A stretch of 60,457 bases of DNA from Candidatus Nanoarchaeia archaeon (lineage in GTDB: Archaea; Nanobdellota; Nanobdellia; Woesearchaeales; UBA10216), in the NCBI GenBank assembly GCA_028279045.1, contig JANQSZ010000027.1, positions 1 through 60,457 of the forward strand. The letters are read 5' to 3'. Below, one piece after another: positions 51,476 through 60,387 of the stretch. The stretch's first letter is position 1, and each line of letters opens with the position of its first letter. The notes beneath the pieces were generated by a model. The model did no database searches, was not told the DNA's origin, and saw only the letters and a program-made list of their open reading frames with translations. A program made the position numbers and the translations under genes.

Positions 51476-52941
51476 TAACTTTTCCGCGTTTTCCGCGCAA
51501 AGATCAGTATTACTACGACAACAAGCAACACAAACGCCCCGAAAAAGAGAACTTGGTTTCCTTTTTCTCCGACTATTTTGCTTGCAGCTTCCGCAATAAA
51601 AGAATCCTCTTTCTCAGCTGCAGGTTTTTCTTCTTCTTGTTGCACAGGTTCTTCCTCTACAAACTCCCCCACAACTAAGAAGTTTACCTGAGTTTCTATT
51701 TCCCTTGTTTCCCCATACACTGTTTCATACCACAGCGTAACATCGACCGTATGATTTCCTTCTGGCAAATTCTGCGGGACACGTACTTCTGCATGACTGT
51801 TAAACGGTACAGATCCAAACGTCCCCTCTCCAGTGATAATGTCATCAACCTTGATCGTTCCCCATTGTACTGGAATTCTCTCCGGATTTACAACAAGCAA
51901 TCGCACTTCTTGTCCAGGCCCGTACGCAGACTGCACACTTCGCACATACGGCGTATTTCCATCTACTGTCACATTCAAGTCACCTTCGATCATAAACTGC
52001 TTACCCGATTCCAGTACATGCAGTTCCCAATCAAACGATAACTCTCCGAGCGCGCGCGGCTGGATAATAAAGGTCATGTTCTGCGTATCATCTTTCTTGA
52101 ACGATCGAGAAAACGTTGCTTTCTGCGGATTCTGTATGTTCGCTGTCTCCGCCTCGACAAATTCCAATCCATCAGGCAGCAAAACAACAAACTCATCCAT
52201 GTTTGTATCTTCTATTGCTTCCAAATCAAACACAAGTCGAATCTGGTCTGTAATTTCTACTGATTCGTTGTGTTCTGTTTCAATTTCTATTGGAAACGGC
52301 ATAACATTCACTGTCTGCGTTCCTGTTTCTGTCTTGAAACTCTTACCATTGTCATACGTTACCTTTGCCGAAACAACAATATCCTTCCCAGTCTTAGCTC
52401 TCAATATCATTGGACATTGTTGTTTAATTGATTGTTCAATTTCTCCGTGCCAGTACACCGAATCTCCTTTTATCGTACATTCAGAAGAGCTTATGTCCGC
52501 GTTGGTCCACGTCAAATTGATGCTGACATTCTCTGCTTCTTTCGACCCTGTATTCTGAATTACAGGTGTAATCGTCGCCTGTTCATTTATCTCCAAATCA
52601 TCTTTCGAAAGCAAGAACGTTATCTCCATGTCTGCAATCTGTTGTGTTATCTTAACCGTAGCTTTATACATAATCCTATCAGGATGACTAATATTATAAT
52701 GAGAAAACAACACATTCTCCGCACAAACCGTACGGTGTTCTTCAAATTCGCAACTATTATTCTCCAGAATGTAACTGTTGTCTCCCCAATCTATAGAGAC
52801 ATCTTCCCCAACAATACTCACAGTAAGAAAATCATCCCCTGCCTTATACGGCACAAACTCGACTGCTGTTCCTGAGAAAACGCTCTCTTCCAGCGCATAG
52901 GCGCTCGGAAGTAAGAATAAAAAAAGAAGGAGGTACTTCAT
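51472..52941 (-). CDS. Cell-surface protein with a signal peptide, CARDB-like beta-sandwich repeats and a C-terminal TM anchor
   Basis: I trimmed the ORF 51472-53001 to ATG 52941 (ATGA overlap with the dut stop). MKYLLLFLFLLPSAYA signal, IQNTGSKEAENVSINL (CARDB-like), and C-terminus VLFFGAFVLLVVVVILIFARKTRK. Confidence 0.75.
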   Translation of the reverse strand: MKYLLLFLFLLPSAYALEESVFSGTAVEFVPYKAGDDFLTVSIVGEDVSIDWGDNSYILENNSCEFEEHRTVCAENVLFSHYNISHPDRIMYKATVKITQQIADMEITFLLSKDDLEINEQATITPVIQNTGSKEAENVSINLTWTNADISSSECTIKGDSVYWHGEIEQSIKQQCPMILRAKTGKDIVVSAKVTYDNGKSFKTETGTQTVNVMPFPIEIETEHNESVEITDQIRLVFDLEAIEDTNMDEFVVLLPDGLEFVEAETANIQNPQKATFSRSFKKDDTQNMTFIIQPRALGELSFDWELHVLESGKQFMIEGDLNVTVDGNTPYVRSVQSAYGPGQEVRLLVVNPERIPVQWGTIKVDDIITGEGTFGSVPFNSHAEVRVPQNLPEGNHTVDVTLWYETVYGETREIETQVNFLVVGEFVEEEPVQQEEEKPAAEKEDSFIAEAASKIVGEKGNQVLFFGAFVLLVVVVILIFARKTRKSY

Positions 52942-53363
52942 CCGGTGCTCCCAAATCCTCCTCTGCTTTCGCCCATCTGGTCTTTCTCTTCCCATGCGCA
53001 TGTTTCGATCTTGACAAATATTCCTTGTGCAATGCGCTCTCCGCGTTCTACAAGCACATCTCCATCGGTGATGTTGTACACTTGCACACCAATTTCGTCT
53101 TCTTCTCCACTATAATCTTGATCAATAACCCCTATACCGTGCGGCTTTATCAATCCTTTCTTCTTTGGTGTCGAACTACGCAATGCAAGCAGCAGCATAT
53201 AGCCTGGCGGAGTACGAACAATAATATTGCCCGGTACTAACCCAATCTTCCCTGCTGGAATTGTAGTATCTTGTCTGCAGTGGATATCAAATCCTACAGA
53301 GCCCGCTGTTTTGTATTCCGGTAGCGGAATTTCTTTATCAATTCGCTTGATTTCAATGTTCAT
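52938..53363 (-). CDS. dut: dUTP diphosphatase (trimeric dUTPase)
   Basis: 141 aa. AGSVGFDI, RSSTPKKKGL and GVIDQDYSGE motifs. Confidence 0.9.
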   Translation of the reverse strand: MNIEIKRIDKEIPLPEYKTAGSVGFDIHCRQDTTIPAGKIGLVPGNIIVRTPPGYMLLLALRSSTPKKKGLIKPHGIGVIDQDYSGEEDEIGVQVYNITDGDVLVERGERIAQGIFVKIETCAWEEKDQMGESRGGFGSTG

Positions 53364-53610
53364 CGTTCAAAACTCTGTCTACTTGCTTAATACTCTGCGC
53401 CATATGCAGTACATTACCGTCATCGTCTAAGAAAAGCACGGTAGGCACGCTCGTAATTCCATATTGCCCTATTTGTTCCCTGTTTTCCGGTTGGCTCGCA
53501 TCGATAAGTTCTCCTTTGAGTTCTTGTTTCGACATATGGTCTTTAACCGCAGGACAACTTGGACAAGTGGGCGTTGTAAACAGTTTGTATTTCGCTATCA
53601 TCGCTTTCAC
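53353..53610 (-). CDS. Small thioredoxin-fold redoxin (glutaredoxin/NrdH-like, CPSC active site)
   Basis: 85 aa. KLFTTPTCPSCPAVK...ITSVPTVLF. Confidence 0.8.
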   Translation of the reverse strand: MKAMIAKYKLFTTPTCPSCPAVKDHMSKQELKGELIDASQPENREQIGQYGITSVPTVLFLDDDGNVLHMAQSIKQVDRVLNDEH

Positions 53611-54047
53611 CTAACTAGTTTCTTGAGCTCTTGCTCAAACATTTTCACGTCTTCAAATTCGCGGTATACAGAAGTGAATCGTAAGTATGCTACTTTGTCT
53701 ATGCTCTTGAGTCGTTTGACAACCATATCTCCAATTTTCTTGCTGGACACTTCACAAATATCTTTTTTGCGCAGTTCTTGTTCAATACTGTCGGCAATTC
53801 CATCAAGTTGTTCAGTTGACAATCTCTTCTCGCATGCTTTCGATAGCCCCTCAACAATTTTCTCTCTATTGAACGGCTCTGTTGCACCGCCTTTTTTCAT
53901 GACCGTAATCTCTACTTCAAGTCGCTCGTACGTTGTAAAACGTCGTGCACATTTCAAGCATTCTCTGCGCCGGCGTGTAGAATTTACATCAGTTGTCTCT
54001 CGTTTGTCCACAACTTTCGTATCCTTCTTACAATAGGGGCATTTCAT
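53607..54047 (-). CDS. nrdR: NrdR transcriptional repressor (zinc ribbon + ATP-cone)
   Basis: 146 aa. MKCPYCKKDTKVVDKRET...RRRRECLKCARRFTTYERLE is the NrdR signature. It is followed by an ATP-cone (VMKKGGATEPFNREKI...AYLRFTSVYREF). Confidence 0.9.
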   Translation of the reverse strand: MKCPYCKKDTKVVDKRETTDVNSTRRRRECLKCARRFTTYERLEVEITVMKKGGATEPFNREKIVEGLSKACEKRLSTEQLDGIADSIEQELRKKDICEVSSKKIGDMVVKRLKSIDKVAYLRFTSVYREFEDVKMFEQELKKLVR

Positions 54048-54601
54048 TCTTCTTCGTTCAAGTACCGGTAAATTGGTTGTTGCTCCTTTACTTGTTCATT
54101 ATTTGCAAGCCTCGCAAGCAAGTACAGTGCATCTGATAATCTATTCAAGTATTGCAGTAATTCTCCTCGGATTTCAACATTCTTACTGAGCCGCACAACA
54201 TGCCGTTCTGCTCTCCGAGCGATAGTTCGTGCATAATCAAGATACGCACTCTCTTTTGTTCCGCCAGGAACTACAAAGCTCTTCGGCAGTACAATAGTGT
54301 TCATGATGTCATCACTCAATTGTTCAATCTCTGCAACATGCTTTTTCGTGATAATCGGAATGTTCTGATTCTCTTTTGTTCCTTGCGCAAGCTCTGCGCA
54401 AACAGTAAACAGATCATTTTGCAATTTTGAAACAATTTCTTGAACTTTTTTATCGTTCATATGGCTCTTGGCAACGCCAAGAATAGAATTAACTTCGTCA
54501 TAGGTCCCGTACGCCTCGATCCGCAGGTCGTCTTTACCAACAACCTCTCCGCTGATGAACCGAGTGGTACCTTTATCACCGCCTTTTGTATAAATGTGCA
54601 T
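54044..54601 (-). CDS. pduO: ATP:cob(I)alamin adenosyltransferase, PduO type
   Basis: 185 aa. MHIYTKGGDKGTT...DDLRIEAYGTYDEVNS...RTIARRAER. Confidence 0.9.
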   Translation of the reverse strand: MHIYTKGGDKGTTRFISGEVVGKDDLRIEAYGTYDEVNSILGVAKSHMNDKKVQEIVSKLQNDLFTVCAELAQGTKENQNIPIITKKHVAEIEQLSDDIMNTIVLPKSFVVPGGTKESAYLDYARTIARRAERHVVRLSKNVEIRGELLQYLNRLSDALYLLARLANNEQVKEQQPIYRYLNEEE

Positions 54602-56743
54602 TTAGTCGCATGAAGTGTAACCGCAGGATTCGCAGGTTCCACATCCCTCCTTATCGATCAGCTGTGTATCGCACTCTGGACAAAGATCAGGTTGGTGTTC
54701 GTCTCCGATAGTAACCACTTGATCACTCATACTTTGATCTCGATAAATCGTAATTCCTTTACATCCCAATTTGTACGCTTGTAAATAGGCGTTCTCCACG
54801 TCATCAATAGTTGCACTACTTGGGAAGTTAATCGTCTTGGATATTGCACCGTCAACATATTTTTGGAATGCAGCTTGCATCCGCACGTGCGATTCCGGAG
54901 AAATGTCCATTCCCGTTACAAACACGCGTTTGATTGCATCTGGAATGTCTGCAATCCTCTGCACACTCCCTCCTTGTGCAATTCTTCTCATTAAATCAAG
55001 ACTGTAAAACTCTTCTTCTTTTGCAGCACGTTCAAATAACGGATTGCTGTACACCATTTCTGTTCCCATAACCGTCTTGATATACGACAATGCGAAGTTT
55101 GGTTCGCATCCGCTCGATACATCTGCCAATAAACTGATAGTTCCTGTCGGCGATATCGCCGTTACACCAGAATTTCGCATCTGACGGCCTTGCTGTTGGT
55201 GAATAGATCCTTCCCATCGAGGATATGCTCCTCGCTTCTTTGCAAGATCTTGTGAAGCGTTATGTGCAGTTTTCTGAATAAAGCTCATCACTTTCTCTGC
55301 AGTTTCAAACCCAGATTCACTGTCATAGGATATACGCAGCGCATACAACATGTCTGCAAAGCCCATAATTCCCAGTCCGATCTTTCGGGTTGCTTTACAA
55401 ACAGCTTCCATTTCTTCTAGTGGATATGAAGTAGCGTCAACAGCATTGTCCAAGAAGTGAACAGCTCCCTTAACAGCTTCCTCCAACCCTTTCCAGTCAA
55501 TCTTCTGGTCTTCCTTAACAAAAGACTTCAAATTAATTGATCCGAAAGGGCTGCTTTCATACGGAAGCATCGGTTGTTCTCCACAAGGGCTTGTACTTTC
55601 CACGTCTCCCAAGTGTCGTCCGCCGTGGAGATCATTCATTCTGTCAATAAATACTATGCCGGGATCTCCTGTTTTCCACGCGTTCTGCAATAGCACGTTA
55701 AACACATTTCGTGCCTTAAGCCGCTTTACTGATTTTCCAGTCCGTGGATTAATTAAATCGTAATGTTCATCAGCCAGCACTGCTTCCATGAACGCATTTG
55801 TAGCCGCTACTGAAATGTTGAAGTTCTGCAGTGTCTGTTTGTCTTCTTTCAAATGTATGAATGATAAAATATCAGGGTGATCTATGCGTAAAATGCCCAT
55901 ATTTGCTCCGCTTCTCTTTCCGCCTTGCAGTACTGCTTCCGCAGAACTATCAAACACTTTCATGAATGATATTGGTCCGCCTGCAACACCTTGTTTTCGA
56001 TGCACAGTATCTCCTGCAGGACGCAAGCGTGAGAAATTAAACCCTGTTCCGCCACCGCGTTGTTGAATAATCGCAGCATGCTTTATCGCATCATAGATAC
56101 TTTCCATGCTGTCGTAAATCGGCAGCACGTAACAACTGCTGAGCTGCGGCACATCTGTTCCAGCATTCATCAGCGTCGGTGATGTTGGCAAGAATTGCAA
56201 TTCTGTCATCATCGAATAGAACTTATCTGCAGACTGTTGCACTTCTTGGTCGCTTCCACCATATTGTCGATCAACTTCTGCAAGTGATTGTGAAACTCTC
56301 CGCAGCATATCCTCGGGAGTTTCATTAAGTGTTCCATCTGCGCTCTTCCGCAGATAACGTTGTTCTAGAATCTTCAATGCGTTATGTGAAAAATTAAGTT
56401 CTTTGATCTTGGCAGCTTTTTCTTCTCCAAGAATCAAGCTTCTTTTCTCTCTATCTGATGTTCGTTCGTGTCGATACAAAATGTACGCTTTTGCTGTCTT
56501 CGCATGCGCACTCCGTATCAATACTTCTTCCGTTATGTCTTGAATGTCTTCGACATGCGGCATTCCTTCTGTGAATCGTTGGCGTACGACTTCTTCTACT
56601 TTCTGAGCAAGTTCTTTAGAAGTTTTCTTATCCTTTCCACCTACGGATTGTGCAGCTTTGAAAATAGCATCTGCTATTTTTTCCACTTCAAATTCCGCAA
56701 TGCTTCCATCACGTTTCTTTACGTGAAATCGTGTAGGGAGCAT
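54602..56743 (-). CDS. Class II (adenosylcobalamin) ribonucleotide reductase paralogue with substituted active-site Asn and Cys
   Basis: I trimmed the ORF 54602-56767 to ATG 56743, which has a GAGGGG SD 5 nt upstream and lies 11 nt after the upstream stop. N-terminal ATP-cone, LSSCYV, STSPCGEQPMLPYESSPFGSINL, and a C-terminal Cys-rich finger CPEC...CGTCESCG. Confidence 0.85.
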   Translation of the reverse strand: MLPTRFHVKKRDGSIAEFEVEKIADAIFKAAQSVGGKDKKTSKELAQKVEEVVRQRFTEGMPHVEDIQDITEEVLIRSAHAKTAKAYILYRHERTSDREKRSLILGEEKAAKIKELNFSHNALKILEQRYLRKSADGTLNETPEDMLRRVSQSLAEVDRQYGGSDQEVQQSADKFYSMMTELQFLPTSPTLMNAGTDVPQLSSCYVLPIYDSMESIYDAIKHAAIIQQRGGGTGFNFSRLRPAGDTVHRKQGVAGGPISFMKVFDSSAEAVLQGGKRSGANMGILRIDHPDILSFIHLKEDKQTLQNFNISVAATNAFMEAVLADEHYDLINPRTGKSVKRLKARNVFNVLLQNAWKTGDPGIVFIDRMNDLHGGRHLGDVESTSPCGEQPMLPYESSPFGSINLKSFVKEDQKIDWKGLEEAVKGAVHFLDNAVDATSYPLEEMEAVCKATRKIGLGIMGFADMLYALRISYDSESGFETAEKVMSFIQKTAHNASQDLAKKRGAYPRWEGSIHQQQGRQMRNSGVTAISPTGTISLLADVSSGCEPNFALSYIKTVMGTEMVYSNPLFERAAKEEEFYSLDLMRRIAQGGSVQRIADIPDAIKRVFVTGMDISPESHVRMQAAFQKYVDGAISKTINFPSSATIDDVENAYLQAYKLGCKGITIYRDQSMSDQVVTIGDEHQPDLCPECDTQLIDKEGCGTCESCGYTSCD

Positions 56744-56754
56744 GTGTTCCCCTC

Positions 56755-59700
56755 TCATATATCGCACTTACTAAATCCACAATTCTCGTCCATGCACGTA
56801 TGGCAACCATTCTCAAGTTTTAAGGTTTGCTTTCCGCATTCAGGGCAGGCGCTCAGCTGCATTCCTGCAGCTTCAATATCTGCTTCTTGAACAGCTTCCT
56901 TCTCCTGCTTCTGCATGTTCAGCATTCCTGCCTGTTCACTCACCACGCCATTCTTAATAGCGTGATACACCGTTGTCAACGATCCGTCTGGCATGGTCAA
57001 CACACTATCTCCGTGCACTTCCATGGTTTCTCCATTCATTTCAATAGTAAACGTCTTATCTTTCAATTCTTGGAATTGTGTTTTCTTTCCTTCAACGCTC
57101 AGGATTGGGTATCGGGATCCATCTCTATAGATAGTAATTCCTTTCAACCCTTTCTTCCACGCTTCCAAATAAATCTTCGAAATAACTTCTGGTTCAATAT
57201 CTTCTGCCATATTGACTGTAGATGAAATACTGTGGTCTACATACTTTTGACAGACACCTTGAATCTCCACGCGTCTTTCAGGATCAACGTGGTGTGCTGT
57301 TCTGAAAAAGTGCGCAGGCAAAATTTCTCTCAATTCATCTTCGTTTTCACACTTTTCAACAGCGTCTTTCAATCCTTTTTCTTCTATGTACGCATTTACA
57401 GTATTGTGGAACACCTTAAACAATTTGTTTCCAAACGATTCTGATCTCCGCGTATAATACAGTGAGAAAATAGGCTCAACACCACCACTCACACCAACAT
57501 AATATTTGTTTCCGCTCACGTATCCCAAAATAATGTTTGAGATTGTTCCCGTCGGTGCAATCGAAAGAACTGCAATATTTCTCAATCCTTTCTGTTTAAT
57601 TTGTTCTTTTGTTTCATCGCTTAGCGATTCTACAAAGAACGCACCTTCTTTATATTTATCATAATCAAAAATTGGCGAACTCCCTTTTTCCGCTGCCAAA
57701 TCAGCGCTTGCCTGATAACTGCTATCTGCGATTTCTTTCATGACACGCCCGATAACTTCCATCCCTTCATCACTATCATATCCTTTTCCGATCTGGTTCA
57801 ACATGTCTGCGATTCCCATCACACCAAGACCTAATCTTCGAGTTTCACCCGCGGCTACGCGTTGTTTGTCCAACGCATTTAACGTTTCATTCCAAATAAC
57901 AACATTATCCAAGAACCGCGTTAAGATTCGTGCAGACTCATCAAGTCCTTGCCAGTCTACTTGCGCGTTTTCTCCGTATCCATTCTTCACAAACCGCGAC
58001 AAGTTTAACGAACCAAGGTTGCACGCTCCTCCGTCTTCTAGTGGAACTTCTCCGCACGGATTCGTACTTGCAATAGGTCGACCAACATAGTTAGATGGTG
58101 AGTACTTTGTCATCGTACTCCAGAAGATTAATCCAGGTTCTGCAGTTTGGTAGTTTCCCTCGACAAAGTCATTCCATAGTGTTCGTGCTTTCACCATTTG
58201 TCGGATTTCTCCGGTGTTGCTTGTGTTGTAATACAGCATGTAGTCTCCTGCACGCCGTACAGCATATTCTGCATCTCCAGAAACAACATAGTCAGCAAAA
58301 ATATCTCGCTTTGCCTCTTTGTCAAACTCTTCTTCTGCGATAGTTTGCGCATTATGTGATGTTAAGAATGCATTTGCAGCTTGCAATGAATCAAACACGC
58401 CCACTTCTTCATACTTATCAATTGGACGTTCTGGAATTCCGTATGAGTAATGAACGTTGCCTGTTTGCGGCGCACTTAACGTGTTTACTTCAGGATCTTT
58501 CTTGTACACCAAAATCTTATCCGCTCCATGTCTGACTTGCTCTTCAACAGCTTGCATGAATTCATCAGTTACCTTCAAACTAATGTTCGCAAATCGAACT
58601 TGTGTGTTTTCCCGAACTTGTTTCTCAATAATCCGCAACTGATTCTCATTAAATTCTCCAGACCAGCTGCATTGTTCCTTAATCTGGCTTGTAACCCAGT
58701 TAGAATCTTTCTTTGCTTTCATGAACAGCGGACTATCTGGGTGTTTAACATCTACCGTCAACATAAGCGCTCCTCGTCGGCCAGATTGCCCAATTAGCCC
58801 AGTAGTCAACGAGTAGATTTCCATAAACGAAACAGCACCGGTACTATTGTCTGCTGCATTATGCACAATCGATCCTTTTGGTCGCAGTGAGGAGATATCA
58901 ACTCCGATTCCTCCTCCGTAGCTGTATGTTCGCGCACATTCATATGCAGCTTTGTAAATAGATTCAATATCATCATTCGCTATGACTGATACAAAGCAGT
59001 TAGCAAGTGTTTTCAACCGGTACAGATCTCCTGCTCCCGCAATAACCCGTCCGCCTGGCAAGAAGTGCCCTTGAAACAGTTCAGTGTAAAATTTCTCTGC
59101 CCATTCTTTCTGCTTTTCTTCTGTGGTTTCAACCGCAGCCACAAAAGCAGCCAGTCGAGTGAACATTTGTTCAGGCTGCGTCTCAATCAGTTCATTTGTC
59201 AAGTCTTTCAAGAAGTACTTCTTCTTGTAAATGTTCGTTGCAAGTTCATTTCCTTGCAAGTAGTTCCCTTCAGGATGAACAGGGAGTTTTCCAGCTTTCT
59301 GTTGCTCTTTCAGGTAGAACAGCATATTCTTGTACGCTTCAATTCTGTCATACCCCATCAAGCTGGCAAGCTTACTCTTGTGAGCAAACATGTTCATGAG
59401 CGCAGCAGTCTCTTTGTCGTCTTCCCGGGAAGACTTCGCAGCTTGCTCCCGGAGCTCAGCTCGCTTTGCTCTATACAGAATAAAGGATTTGGCAGTCTTA
59501 TCATGCCCATTTTTGATCAGAATTTCTTCCACAAGGTCTTGGATGTCTTCTACAGTTGGAGCAGCATTTGCAAATTTCTCACTGGCTCGCGCTACTACTT
59601 GCCCTGCAAGTTGATCAGCTAATTCGCGGTTTGTACCTCCGCTTGCCATGGCTGCTTTGAAAATTACAGCAGAAATCTTTGCAGTGTCAAAATCTACTTC

Positions 59701-59760
59701 ATCACCGCTTCTCTTCCGTATGCGGGTTACTCTATTTGTCTCTACTTCTGTATATGCCAT
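56755..59760 (-). CDS. nrdJ: Class II (adenosylcobalamin) ribonucleotide reductase, long form with the full catalytic signature
   Basis: 1001 aa. ATP-cone (VTRIRKRSGDEVDFDTAKI), LANCFV, STNPCGEVPLEDGGACNLGSLNL, and a C-terminal finger CPECG...CHTC...C. Confidence 0.9.
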   Translation of the reverse strand: MAYTEVETNRVTRIRKRSGDEVDFDTAKISAVIFKAAMASGGTNRELADQLAGQVVARASEKFANAAPTVEDIQDLVEEILIKNGHDKTAKSFILYRAKRAELREQAAKSSREDDKETAALMNMFAHKSKLASLMGYDRIEAYKNMLFYLKEQQKAGKLPVHPEGNYLQGNELATNIYKKKYFLKDLTNELIETQPEQMFTRLAAFVAAVETTEEKQKEWAEKFYTELFQGHFLPGGRVIAGAGDLYRLKTLANCFVSVIANDDIESIYKAAYECARTYSYGGGIGVDISSLRPKGSIVHNAADNSTGAVSFMEIYSLTTGLIGQSGRRGALMLTVDVKHPDSPLFMKAKKDSNWVTSQIKEQCSWSGEFNENQLRIIEKQVRENTQVRFANISLKVTDEFMQAVEEQVRHGADKILVYKKDPEVNTLSAPQTGNVHYSYGIPERPIDKYEEVGVFDSLQAANAFLTSHNAQTIAEEEFDKEAKRDIFADYVVSGDAEYAVRRAGDYMLYYNTSNTGEIRQMVKARTLWNDFVEGNYQTAEPGLIFWSTMTKYSPSNYVGRPIASTNPCGEVPLEDGGACNLGSLNLSRFVKNGYGENAQVDWQGLDESARILTRFLDNVVIWNETLNALDKQRVAAGETRRLGLGVMGIADMLNQIGKGYDSDEGMEVIGRVMKEIADSSYQASADLAAEKGSSPIFDYDKYKEGAFFVESLSDETKEQIKQKGLRNIAVLSIAPTGTISNIILGYVSGNKYYVGVSGGVEPIFSLYYTRRSESFGNKLFKVFHNTVNAYIEEKGLKDAVEKCENEDELREILPAHFFRTAHHVDPERRVEIQGVCQKYVDHSISSTVNMAEDIEPEVISKIYLEAWKKGLKGITIYRDGSRYPILSVEGKKTQFQELKDKTFTIEMNGETMEVHGDSVLTMPDGSLTTVYHAIKNGVVSEQAGMLNMQKQEKEAVQEADIEAAGMQLSACPECGKQTLKLENGCHTCMDENCGFSKCDI

Positions 59761-59851
59761 TCCGTTTCATCCCTCTTATTCATTTGCTCACCGCAGAAGA
59801 ATCCAATGTCGCTTGCAGTGAAAATCATAGTAAACCTCGGTTGGTAGCAAT

Positions 59852-59867
59852 CTACCATATCTTGTGC
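59852..59867. promoter_or_regulatory. NrdR-box-like palindrome A (CTACCATATCTTGTGC)
   Basis: It matches the bacterial NrdR-box consensus acaCwAnATnTwGtgt in the whole right half and most of the left half. It lies 32 bp centre-to-centre from box B. Confidence 0.55.
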
Positions 59868-59883
59868 CTAGCGATTTAAGCCA

Positions 59884-59899
59884 GCACAACATCTTGTGT
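59884..59899. promoter_or_regulatory. NrdR-box-like palindrome B (GCACAACATCTTGTGT)
   Basis: It matches every conserved position of the consensus acaCwAnATnTwGtgt. It sits about 20-30 nt downstream (minus strand) of the TATA at 59917-59926, over the predicted transcription start of the nrd operon. Confidence 0.65.
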
Positions 59900-59916
59900 T
59901 TTCCAGGATTTCCTGC

Positions 59917-59926
59917 TATATAAATA
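59917..59926. promoter_or_regulatory. TATA element (TATATAAATA) in the divergent nrdJ / response-regulator intergenic region
   Basis: This is the only strong TATA-like tract between 59761 and 59973, and it could fire in either direction. Confidence 0.4.
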
Positions 59927-60018
59927 TTATGGCACTTTAACATATCAATTTAATCTTCAATGTTCCACAAGCTATGCCAATCACAATGTTTTTAATGCTG
60001 AAAATAGTCACGCCTTCT

Positions 60019-60387
60019 ATGACAAAAAAGCGGGTGCTTATTGTTGAAGATGAAGAGAACATAGCCAAGGCTGAAGGCATTATTTTGGGTACCGACTTTG
60101 ACATCCACTATGCCAAAGATGGCAACGAAGCTATCGACAAAGCCAAGGAGATCACTCCCCACCTTGTAATCCTGGATCTCATGCTTCCAGAGCGAGGCGG
60201 CTATGATGTGTGCTTCCATCTTCGCCAGAACCAACAGTTCAAGGACACCAAGATTATCATGGTGACCGCAAAGAACACTAAGTTGGATGAGGACAAAGGC
60301 ATGTTCATTGGCGCGGACGATTATCTGACCAAGCCATTCGAGCCATCAGAGCTCCGCTATATCGTGCAGCAGAACATGGGTGGCTAG
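60019..60387 (+). CDS. Stand-alone response-regulator receiver domain (CheY-like)
   Basis: MTKKRVLIVEDEE...LVILDLMLP...IIMVTAK...DDYLTKPF. The start is taken at the Met just before the receiver fold, though the ORF-track ATG at 59974 is also possible. Confidence 0.85.
   Translation: MTKKRVLIVEDEENIAKAEGIILGTDFDIHYAKDGNEAIDKAKEITPHLVILDLMLPERGGYDVCFHLRQNQQFKDTKIIMVTAKNTKLDEDKGMFIGADDYLTKPFEPSELRYIVQQNMGG

Follow-up and report, generated by a model that had tools for sequence, protein, structure and literature searches.

A probable NrdR operator downstream of the TATA box of a ribonucleotide reductase operon in a DPANN-type archaeon

NrdR, a repressor of ribonucleotide reductase (RNR) genes, has been studied as a bacteria-specific antibacterial target, and the published surveys of NrdR boxes consulted here (the boxes are the paired DNA sites that it binds) were directed at, or confined to, genomes of bacteria. 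Recent papers describe NrdR as "rare in archaea" or as present in "some archaea", with "a few archaeal RNRs" under NrdR control; a 2026 paper reports it in 22% of archaeal genomes, and one 2025 preprint describes it as having no archaeal orthologues. The action of bacteria-like regulators on archaeal basal transcription machinery is a general rule. The stretch analyzed is 60,457 bp of contig JANQSZ010000027.1 from a DPANN-type archaeon (hereafter the window), and the element under study is a pair of candidate NrdR boxes at 59852-59899, upstream of the minus-strand gene nrdJ encoding a class II RNR. A reading made earlier from the sequence alone proposed that these boxes belong to an autoregulated, bacterial-style circuit set on a promoter served by TATA-binding protein (TBP) and transcription factor B (TFB). 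The boxes, the NrdR residues, the host, and the position of the pair all lend support to this proposal. We consider it likely, with good confidence, that 59852-59899 is a functional operator of a six-gene operon for the supply of deoxyribonucleoside triphosphates (dNTPs), and we infer that NrdR binds the operator and represses the operon from it.

The box pair and the nrdJ promoter

Two 16-bp boxes, read here on the nrdJ sense (minus) strand, make up the element. The promoter-proximal box 1, ACACAAGATGTTGTGC, occupies 59899-59884, and the promoter-distal box 2, GCACAAGATATGGTAG, occupies 59867-59852; on the plus strand, the letters read GCACAACATCTTGTGT at 59884-59899 and CTACCATATCTTGTGC at 59852-59867. 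The boxes are separated by a 16-bp linker (59868-59883), their centres are 32 bp apart, and the whole two-box element is 48 bp long (59852-59899). On re-reading, the coordinates, sequences, and 32-bp spacing given by the sequence-only reading were all correct, and its judgment that both 16-mers fit the NrdR box held for all published sequence criteria for NrdR sites. Each box carries all six of the positions that have been termed "highly conserved", that is, C4, A6, A8, T9, T11, and G13 (Shahid et al. 2026). The published linker is 15-16 bp (or 26-27 bp), and the 16 bp found here falls within the 15-16 bp rule. At least 63% A+T is required between C4 and G13, allowing a sharp bend; C4 and G13 are separated by 8 bp in both boxes, and 6 of these 8 bp (75%) are A+T in each.

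We then compared the boxes with the rest of the window. Box 1 has a single mismatch to the strict consensus ACACWANATNTWGTGT and is the sole match in the window at one mismatch or fewer, with 0.08 expected. Box 2 has four mismatches, which are found only at the weakly conserved positions 1, 12, 15, and 16. At three mismatches the consensus gave 7 matches in the window compared to 10 expected and was uninformative, and therefore a weight-matrix test independent of the archaeal data was used. The published loose regular expression gave six pairs in the window, mostly in coding sequence, and missed the pair at a Woesearchaeotal locus described below (L006, which has a central AG); for this reason as well, the weight matrix was used instead. 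The matrix was derived only from the ten Escherichia coli and Streptomyces coelicolor boxes that were bound in microscale thermophoresis (Shahid et al. 2026, Table 1). Since NrdRs bind heterologous boxes, the bacterial consensus is a fair test here.

When all 16-mers of the window were ranked with this matrix, box 1 was first at 16.5 bits and box 2 second at 13.0 bits. Both scores fall inside the range of the bound bacterial boxes on the same matrix (11.4-17.8 bits). The pair together scored 29.6 bits, compared to the best pairs of 200 dinucleotide shuffles, which had a mean of 10.7 bits (sd 2.3) and a maximum of 18.5 bits. Equally good matches elsewhere had been named in advance as evidence that would speak against the proposal; the matrix revealed none comparable elsewhere in the window, nor any away from nrdR and RNR genes across the 1.13 Mb scanned with the related loci. 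A single box-like 16-mer of 11.5 bits, ATACAGCATGTAGTCT (58231-58246, inside the nrdJ1 coding sequence), has no partner at operator spacing and is probably a chance match.

The boxes sit in a 213-bp gap between the 1001-codon minus-strand nrdJ open reading frame (ORF; ATG at 59760) and a divergent response-regulator ORF. Upstream of box 1, with 17 bp in between, lies the TATA box TTTATATA (59917-59924 on the minus strand, reading 59924-59917 in the nrdJ sense). Directly upstream of the TATA box is an A-rich ATAATA (59930-59925, minus strand), which resembles the textbook consensus of the TFB-recognition element (BRE). The pair is thus located between a TATA element and the nrdJ ATG, as the sequence-only reading had placed it. 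Of 14 occurrences of TTTAWATA in the window, 11 are intergenic, with intergenic DNA making up only 9% of the sequence, and at four window genes (starts 190, 2825, 15299, and 45198) the first base of the motif precedes the ATG by 29-33 nt. This suggests that the host has canonical archaeal TATA promoters and mostly leaderless transcripts.

The distance from the first TATA base to the transcription start was calibrated at 29-33 nt on these four apparently leaderless genes. Applied to the TATA box at 59924, this spacing predicts a minus-strand transcription start at 59891-59895, inside box 1, in agreement with the earlier suggestion that one of the boxes covers the predicted start. Relative to the predicted start, box 2 lies at approximately +28 to +43, and the nrdJ leader would be approximately 134 nt in length. 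The box pair is situated about 91-92 nt upstream of nrdJ1. The rest of the 5' leader (59761-59851, minus strand, 91 nt) carries a Shine-Dalgarno-like AGAGGG (59776-59771) ten bases before the ATG, and no further element was detected in it by fold, Rfam, or sigma-70 scans.

Use of the same TATA box by the divergent response-regulator gene (59974-60387, plus strand) was also considered and rejected, as that gene has a TATA-like sequence of its own, TTTTTAAT (region 59989-60021). The receiver domain begins at ORF residue 21, there is an in-frame ATG at 60019, and TTTTTAAT starts exactly 30 nt before this ATG, which is the spacing seen with the leaderless genes of the window. The gene probably starts at 60019 under its own promoter, and with a TATA-like sequence at this distance, sharing of the nrdJ TATA box is not needed.

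Box pairs at related archaeal loci

A set of 106 related loci was collected by exact-protein look-ups and an alignment-based metagenome scan. A single-NrdR scan of a genome collection gave at least five loci, four of them bacterial among the matches listed. The first 104 loci were scanned together with the window (1.13 Mb in all), and two further loci (L105 and L106) were scanned afterwards. The pair cut-off was set at 19 bits, which exceeds the best shuffle. At or above it, no locus had more than one pair; 28 sequences had one, in each case directly upstream of an nrdR or an RNR gene. The metagenome loci are a mixture of bacteria and archaea. For 11 loci, counting the window, whose sequence included the RNR upstream region, archaeal status was established from the taxonomy of the metagenome-assembled genome (MAG) or from archaeal neighbour genes. 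A pair scoring between 18.9 and 30.0 bits was present in all 11, and the expectation raised by the sequence-only reading, that orthologous promoters would carry box pairs, was thereby borne out for archaeal RNR promoters.

These pair-bearing loci represent Woesearchaeota, Aenigmarchaeota, Micrarchaeota, and Nanoarchaeia. Locus L104, which has the same six-gene operon as the window in the same order, scored 29.3 bits. Pairs of 29.2, 30.0, 29.3, and 22.7 bits were found in Woesearchaeota (L006), Aenigmarchaeota (L008), Nanoarchaeia (L014), and Micrarchaeota (L001), respectively, and pairs of 27.1 and 25.0 bits at two loci assigned by their archaeal neighbour genes (L011 and L100). The two loci scanned afterwards are Woesearchaeotal, and their best pairs, just upstream of nrdR-nrdJ, scored 19.5 bits (L105) and 28.4 bits (L106). 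The remaining pair, from Micrarchaeia (L013, 18.9 bits), is upstream of a class III nrdD; its box 2 is perfect, and its box 1 is degenerate and overlaps the TATA box. The gene orders of the archaeal loci differ, with nrdJ preceding nrdR at a distance in some, nrdR-nrdJ in others, and an unlinked nrdD.

Nine archaeal loci, contributing 18 boxes, were compared position by position. A6, T11, and G13 were present in all 18 boxes, C4 in 17, A8 in 16, and T9 in 15. Mean pairwise identity was 0.65-0.72 for the boxes, compared to 0.35 for the linkers and 0.31-0.32 for the flanks. Linkers and flanks are at background identity, and the linker shows no sequence conservation between loci.

A TATA-like element was found upstream of box 1 in all ten of the other archaeal loci, and in nine of these its first base precedes box 1 by 17-34 nt. 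In the archaeal loci, the most frequent start of TTTAWATA is 24-25 nt before box 1. In six unclassified TATA-type metagenome loci, which are not counted among the 11 archaeal loci, the element starts 12-33 nt before box 1. Pfam scans of the genes near L019, L020, L023, and L073 did not settle the domain of life of these loci. At several loci, as little as 2-16 nt separates the end of box 2 from the start codon, which places the promoter upstream of the boxes there. At bacterial-type loci (L079, L092, and L102, for example), TTGACA abuts box 1.

At two Woesearchaeotal loci that have no RNR nearby (L016, 10001-12695; L098, 10001-11686), no pair was found upstream of nrdR. In many bacteria, autoregulation of nrdR is confined to cases of linkage with an RNR gene, and the two loci, with an RNR-unlinked nrdR lacking a pair, are like these bacteria. 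The nrdR gene at both loci is clustered with genes for an AAA_18-type kinase and a dCMP deaminase; at L023 the kinase and deaminase are fused and lie beside thymidylate synthase.

In a rough neighbour-joining tree of NrdR, the archaeal and TATA-type sequences were found together near the base, mixed with a few bacterial-type loci. Some bacterial NrdRs are as close to the DPANN proteins as the latter are to each other. The NrdR of L102 and L103 (P0056) is 56% identical to the window protein; its contig encodes GreA, a bacterial-type PGI, and heliorhodopsin, and because of the nearby GreA we regard P0056 as bacterial.

NrdR and the operon that encodes it

The window NrdR is a protein of 146 residues with a Zn-ribbon (PF22811, residues 1-41, E=5e-16) and an ATP-cone (PF03477, residues 48-133, E=6e-22). 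The public NrdR gene call on this contig (P0002) has 134 residues and is without the first CxxC of the Zn-ribbon; the complete ORF encodes 146. In full-length alignments to NrdRs of solved structure, the best match was the E. coli protein (E=3e-35), and the S. coelicolor protein aligned with E=1.5e-31. The named homologues among the best 120 matches were all from Woesearchaeota, Nanoarchaeia, Aenigmarchaeota, or Micrarchaeia.

In S. coelicolor NrdR, D15 and R17 read the conserved G-C pairs of the box, and R12, R26-29, and R37 hold the DNA backbone. The nucleotide-binding residues of that protein are K50, R51, E56, and K62, with the 2'-OH being sensed by F124, V127, and Y128. Alignment of 33 DPANN NrdRs revealed that the Zn-ribbon cysteines C3, C6, C30, and C33 are invariant, as are D14, R16, R25-28, and R36, which correspond to S. 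coelicolor D15, R17, R26-29, and R37. In the window protein, K11 replaces S. coelicolor R12. In the ATP-cone, K51, K52, K63, F124, V127, and Y128 are invariant in the same 33 proteins and E57 is present in at least 90% of them; K51 aligns with K53 of E. coli NrdR. The ATP-cone numbering relative to S. coelicolor comes in part from our own alignment and is presumably correct. Since the residues that read DNA and form the nucleotide site are kept, the window NrdR should recognize the same DNA and sense the same nucleotides as bacterial NrdR.

The operon is on the minus strand. Its first gene is nrdJ1 (56755-59760), which encodes a class II RNR of 1001 residues having an N-terminal ATP-cone by Pfam and an intact STNPCGE...ACNLGS active-site motif. 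This is followed by nrdJ2 (54602-56767), encoding a second class II RNR of 721 residues, also with an ATP-cone by Pfam, and by a gene for a PduO-type ATP:cob(I)alamin adenosyltransferase, the enzyme producing the cofactor of NrdJ (54044-54601; PF01923, E=1.5e-53). The start of nrdR (53607-54047) overlaps the upstream stop by 4 nt. Downstream are genes for a glutaredoxin/NrdH-like redoxin (53353-53610; PF00462) and, last in the cluster, a dUTPase (52938-53363; PF00692). The sequence-only reading had nrdR as the fourth gene of the operon, and it is indeed the fourth of six (54047-53607). All six ORFs overlap or abut, with a largest overlap of 13 nt, which strongly indicates that the genes are co-transcribed and, hence, that nrdR is autoregulated.

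The second RNR departs from the first at its active site. Where Thermotoga maritima NrdJ reads STNPCGE...EACNLGS, nrdJ2 reads STSPCGE...ESSPFGS, such that Ser occupies the positions of both Asn320 and the redox-active Cys333 (T. maritima numbering), and nrdJ1 is intact at these positions. The nrdJ2 orthologue of L104 (7342-9456) likewise has Ser in place of Asn and has no Cys at the Cys333 position. As the changes recur in L104, the variant is conserved, and judging from these substitutions nrdJ2 may be a non-canonical or regulatory RNR subunit. LAGLIDADG inteins were found in the nrdJ genes of L006 (5335-9249), L011 (10474-14223), L014 (10453-13830), and L100 (10447-13767), and neither nrdJ of the window contains one.

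The archaeal host assumed by the sequence-only reading is supported by marker genes within the window, as well as by its TTTAWATA promoters. The markers include a SecY with a Sec61 plug, a Hef-type helicase-ERCC4 nuclease, a PAN-like AAA ATPase, and a primase large subunit of the eukaryotic/archaeal type. An assembly chimera was considered as a source of the operon and rejected, as G+C content is uniform across the window and the operon is found among archaeal genes in independent MAGs.

Mode of action and alternative explanations

Among characterized systems, we compared the operon with nrdRJ of S. coelicolor (7P37, 7P3F, and 7P3Q; Rozman Grinberg et al. 2022). The two have in common a repressor built of a Zn-ribbon and an ATP-cone, a pair of 16-bp boxes 15-16 bp apart, and an nrdR gene that is co-transcribed with a class II (B12-dependent) RNR gene and hence autoregulated, as is predicted for the window. 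The repressors further share the D/R pair that reads DNA, the RRRR motif, and the lysines of the ATP-cone. In S. coelicolor, however, nrdR is the first gene and the boxes overlap a sigma-factor promoter, whereas in the window nrdR is the fourth gene and the boxes are downstream of a TATA box served by TBP and TFB. The window operon also differs in having a second nrdJ and genes for the cofactor adenosyltransferase, the redoxin, and dUTPase. The E. coli NrdR, with operators at nrdAB, nrdHIEF, and nrdDG (9GEX and 9FXK, among other structures), is the best solved-structure match and follows the same box rules, but its gene is unlinked to RNR genes and it controls three operons in a bacterial promoter context. 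The haloarchaeal nrdR-nrdAB and nrdR-nrdBA clusters (Lundin et al. 2010) likewise have nrdR beside RNR genes in an archaeon; these are class I RNRs in another archaeal phylum that were acquired in documented recent transfers, and that paper contains no operator analysis. The bacterial mode in which NrdR occludes -35 and -10 elements does not describe the window boxes, which are not accompanied by a sigma-70-like site, whereas the bacterial-type loci do show TTGACA at box 1.

A likeness in working mode is found with two archaeal repressors of unrelated family. LrpA of Pyrococcus furiosus and MDR1 of Archaeoglobus fulgidus bind just downstream of the TATA box alongside TBP and TFB and prevent polymerase recruitment; LrpA regulates its own gene, and MDR1 responds to metal. 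As with the window pair, their operators border the TATA box on its downstream side and cover the start site, which is a predicted one in the window. LrpA and MDR1 differ from NrdR in being helix-turn-helix proteins with other effectors, an unrelated fold, and an unrelated operator.

Bacterial NrdR loaded with ATP forms oligomers unable to bind DNA, and dATP in the outer site results in a tetramer. The two Zn-ribbon pairs of the tetramer, approximately 80 Å apart, bind two boxes separated by three helical turns; each box is kinked by approximately 90 degrees, and the DNA is turned by approximately 180 degrees overall. By analogy with these solved complexes, ATP-loaded NrdR in the archaeon would form large oligomers and would not bind DNA. 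As dATP rises, it would displace ATP from the ATP-cone's outer site, and the resulting tetramer would bind and sharply kink both boxes with its two Zn-ribbon pairs. Bound NrdR would cover approximately -5 to +43, leaving the BRE and TATA box free for TBP and TFB while occupying the DNA needed by the archaeal RNA polymerase, and either polymerase recruitment or promoter opening would be blocked. With nrdR inside the operon, the circuit would be negatively autoregulated. We regard this as the most likely mode of action, and our confidence in the exact step that is blocked is lower than our confidence that the operator is functional. On balance, we lean slightly towards a broader reading in which NrdR is a cross-domain repressor, the same tetramer and two-box geometry being used throughout DPANN to block TBP/TFB-dependent polymerase, with box 1 preferably starting 24-25 nt after the first TATA base and centred on the start site.

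Several observations weigh against a functional operator acting in this manner. Box 2 is off consensus at positions 1, 12, 15, and 16, and a G at position 12 weakened binding when it was combined with other changes in both boxes. S. coelicolor R51 is replaced by Lys (K52) in the window protein, which is a conservative change. The predicted leader of approximately 134 nt is atypical beside the four leaderless-looking TATA genes of the window. Finally, the distance from the TATA box to box 1 across the archaeal loci ranges from overlapping to 34 nt, and the blocked step may therefore differ between lineages.

This variable distance, with the extremes at L013 (overlapping) and L008 (34 nt), also bears on the possibility that NrdR binds the boxes and acts at another step or with the opposite sign, that is, by excluding TBP and TFB through bending, as a polymerase roadblock, or as an activator if the promoter lies downstream. 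The DNA turn of approximately 180 degrees imposed by NrdR could affect a neighbouring TBP-bent TATA box, and the transcription start is a predicted one. Nonetheless, box 1 falls on the predicted start in the commonest arrangement, most loci leave too little space after box 2 to fit a promoter, no TTTAWATA is present between box 2 and the nrdJ ATG in the window, and NrdR is a repressor in every system studied. We therefore consider a different step or sign to be unlikely.

More doubtful still is that the boxes are a non-functional relic of a bacterial nrdJ-nrdR cluster transferred into an archaeon. NrdR is mainly bacterial, the archaeal NrdRs are 55-60% similar to each other compared to approximately 50% to some bacterial ones, and the haloarchaeal clusters provide a precedent for transfer. 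Against this, the boxes are kept across different archaeal gene orders while linkers and flanks have diverged to background identity, and the residues that read DNA and bind nucleotides are invariant in 33 DPANN proteins. The pair is always downstream of an archaeal TATA box and never beside a -35 hexamer, and no sigma-70-like promoter remains, as a scan of 59700-60100 revealed no such site.

It is very improbable that the palindromes act as RNA hairpins affecting stability or translation from the 5' leader, or that an unrelated factor binds them. The predicted transcript includes box 2 and part of box 1, and its predicted fold allows pairing between the boxes, but the fold of the leader was no better than that of shuffled sequences (z = -1.24). 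Rfam gave no match in the window at the gathering threshold or in the region in a permissive scan up to E=1. Moreover, C/G is fixed at positions 4/13 and A/T at positions 6/11, and among the 18 boxes neither pair has switched to another complementary pair; the lack of compensatory changes favours base-specific protein recognition over an RNA helix. The conserved positions also coincide exactly with the NrdR logo. A chance match in A+T-rich intergenic DNA is effectively refuted: loose cores of the form C.W.WW.W.G are indeed frequent (299 in the window, yielding the six loosely spaced pairs), but the pair exceeds every shuffle by more than 11 bits, stands upstream of an RNR operon that itself encodes NrdR, and recurs in ten other archaeal loci.

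A functional NrdR operator at this locus is a less novel idea than the sequence-only reading implied, since archaeal NrdR has already been reported and bacteria-like regulators are the norm at archaeal promoters. The known mechanism of NrdR is unchanged. Among the papers searched, none connected NrdR with DPANN archaea or NrdR boxes with TATA promoters. In the window and the ten other archaeal loci, the canonical operator is retained intact, but it occupies a new place with respect to a basal promoter of another kind, which offers a natural experiment on whether occupancy and bending of the DNA are all that NrdR needs for repression. The comparison also provides a rule for finding archaeal NrdR sites, namely a pair starting roughly 10-35 nt after a TATA box, and a first handle on control of the dNTP pool in the genome-reduced DPANN archaea. 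Its value lies in a clean, testable case of one repressor-operator geometry on two transcription machineries.

If the cross-domain reading is true, no dATP/ATP-sensing transcription factor acting at archaeal promoters would, to our knowledge, have been described before NrdR, and NrdR would repress without the need to touch the RNA polymerase or sigma factor of bacteria. The six-gene cluster would then constitute a complete self-regulating module for dNTP supply in very reduced genomes.

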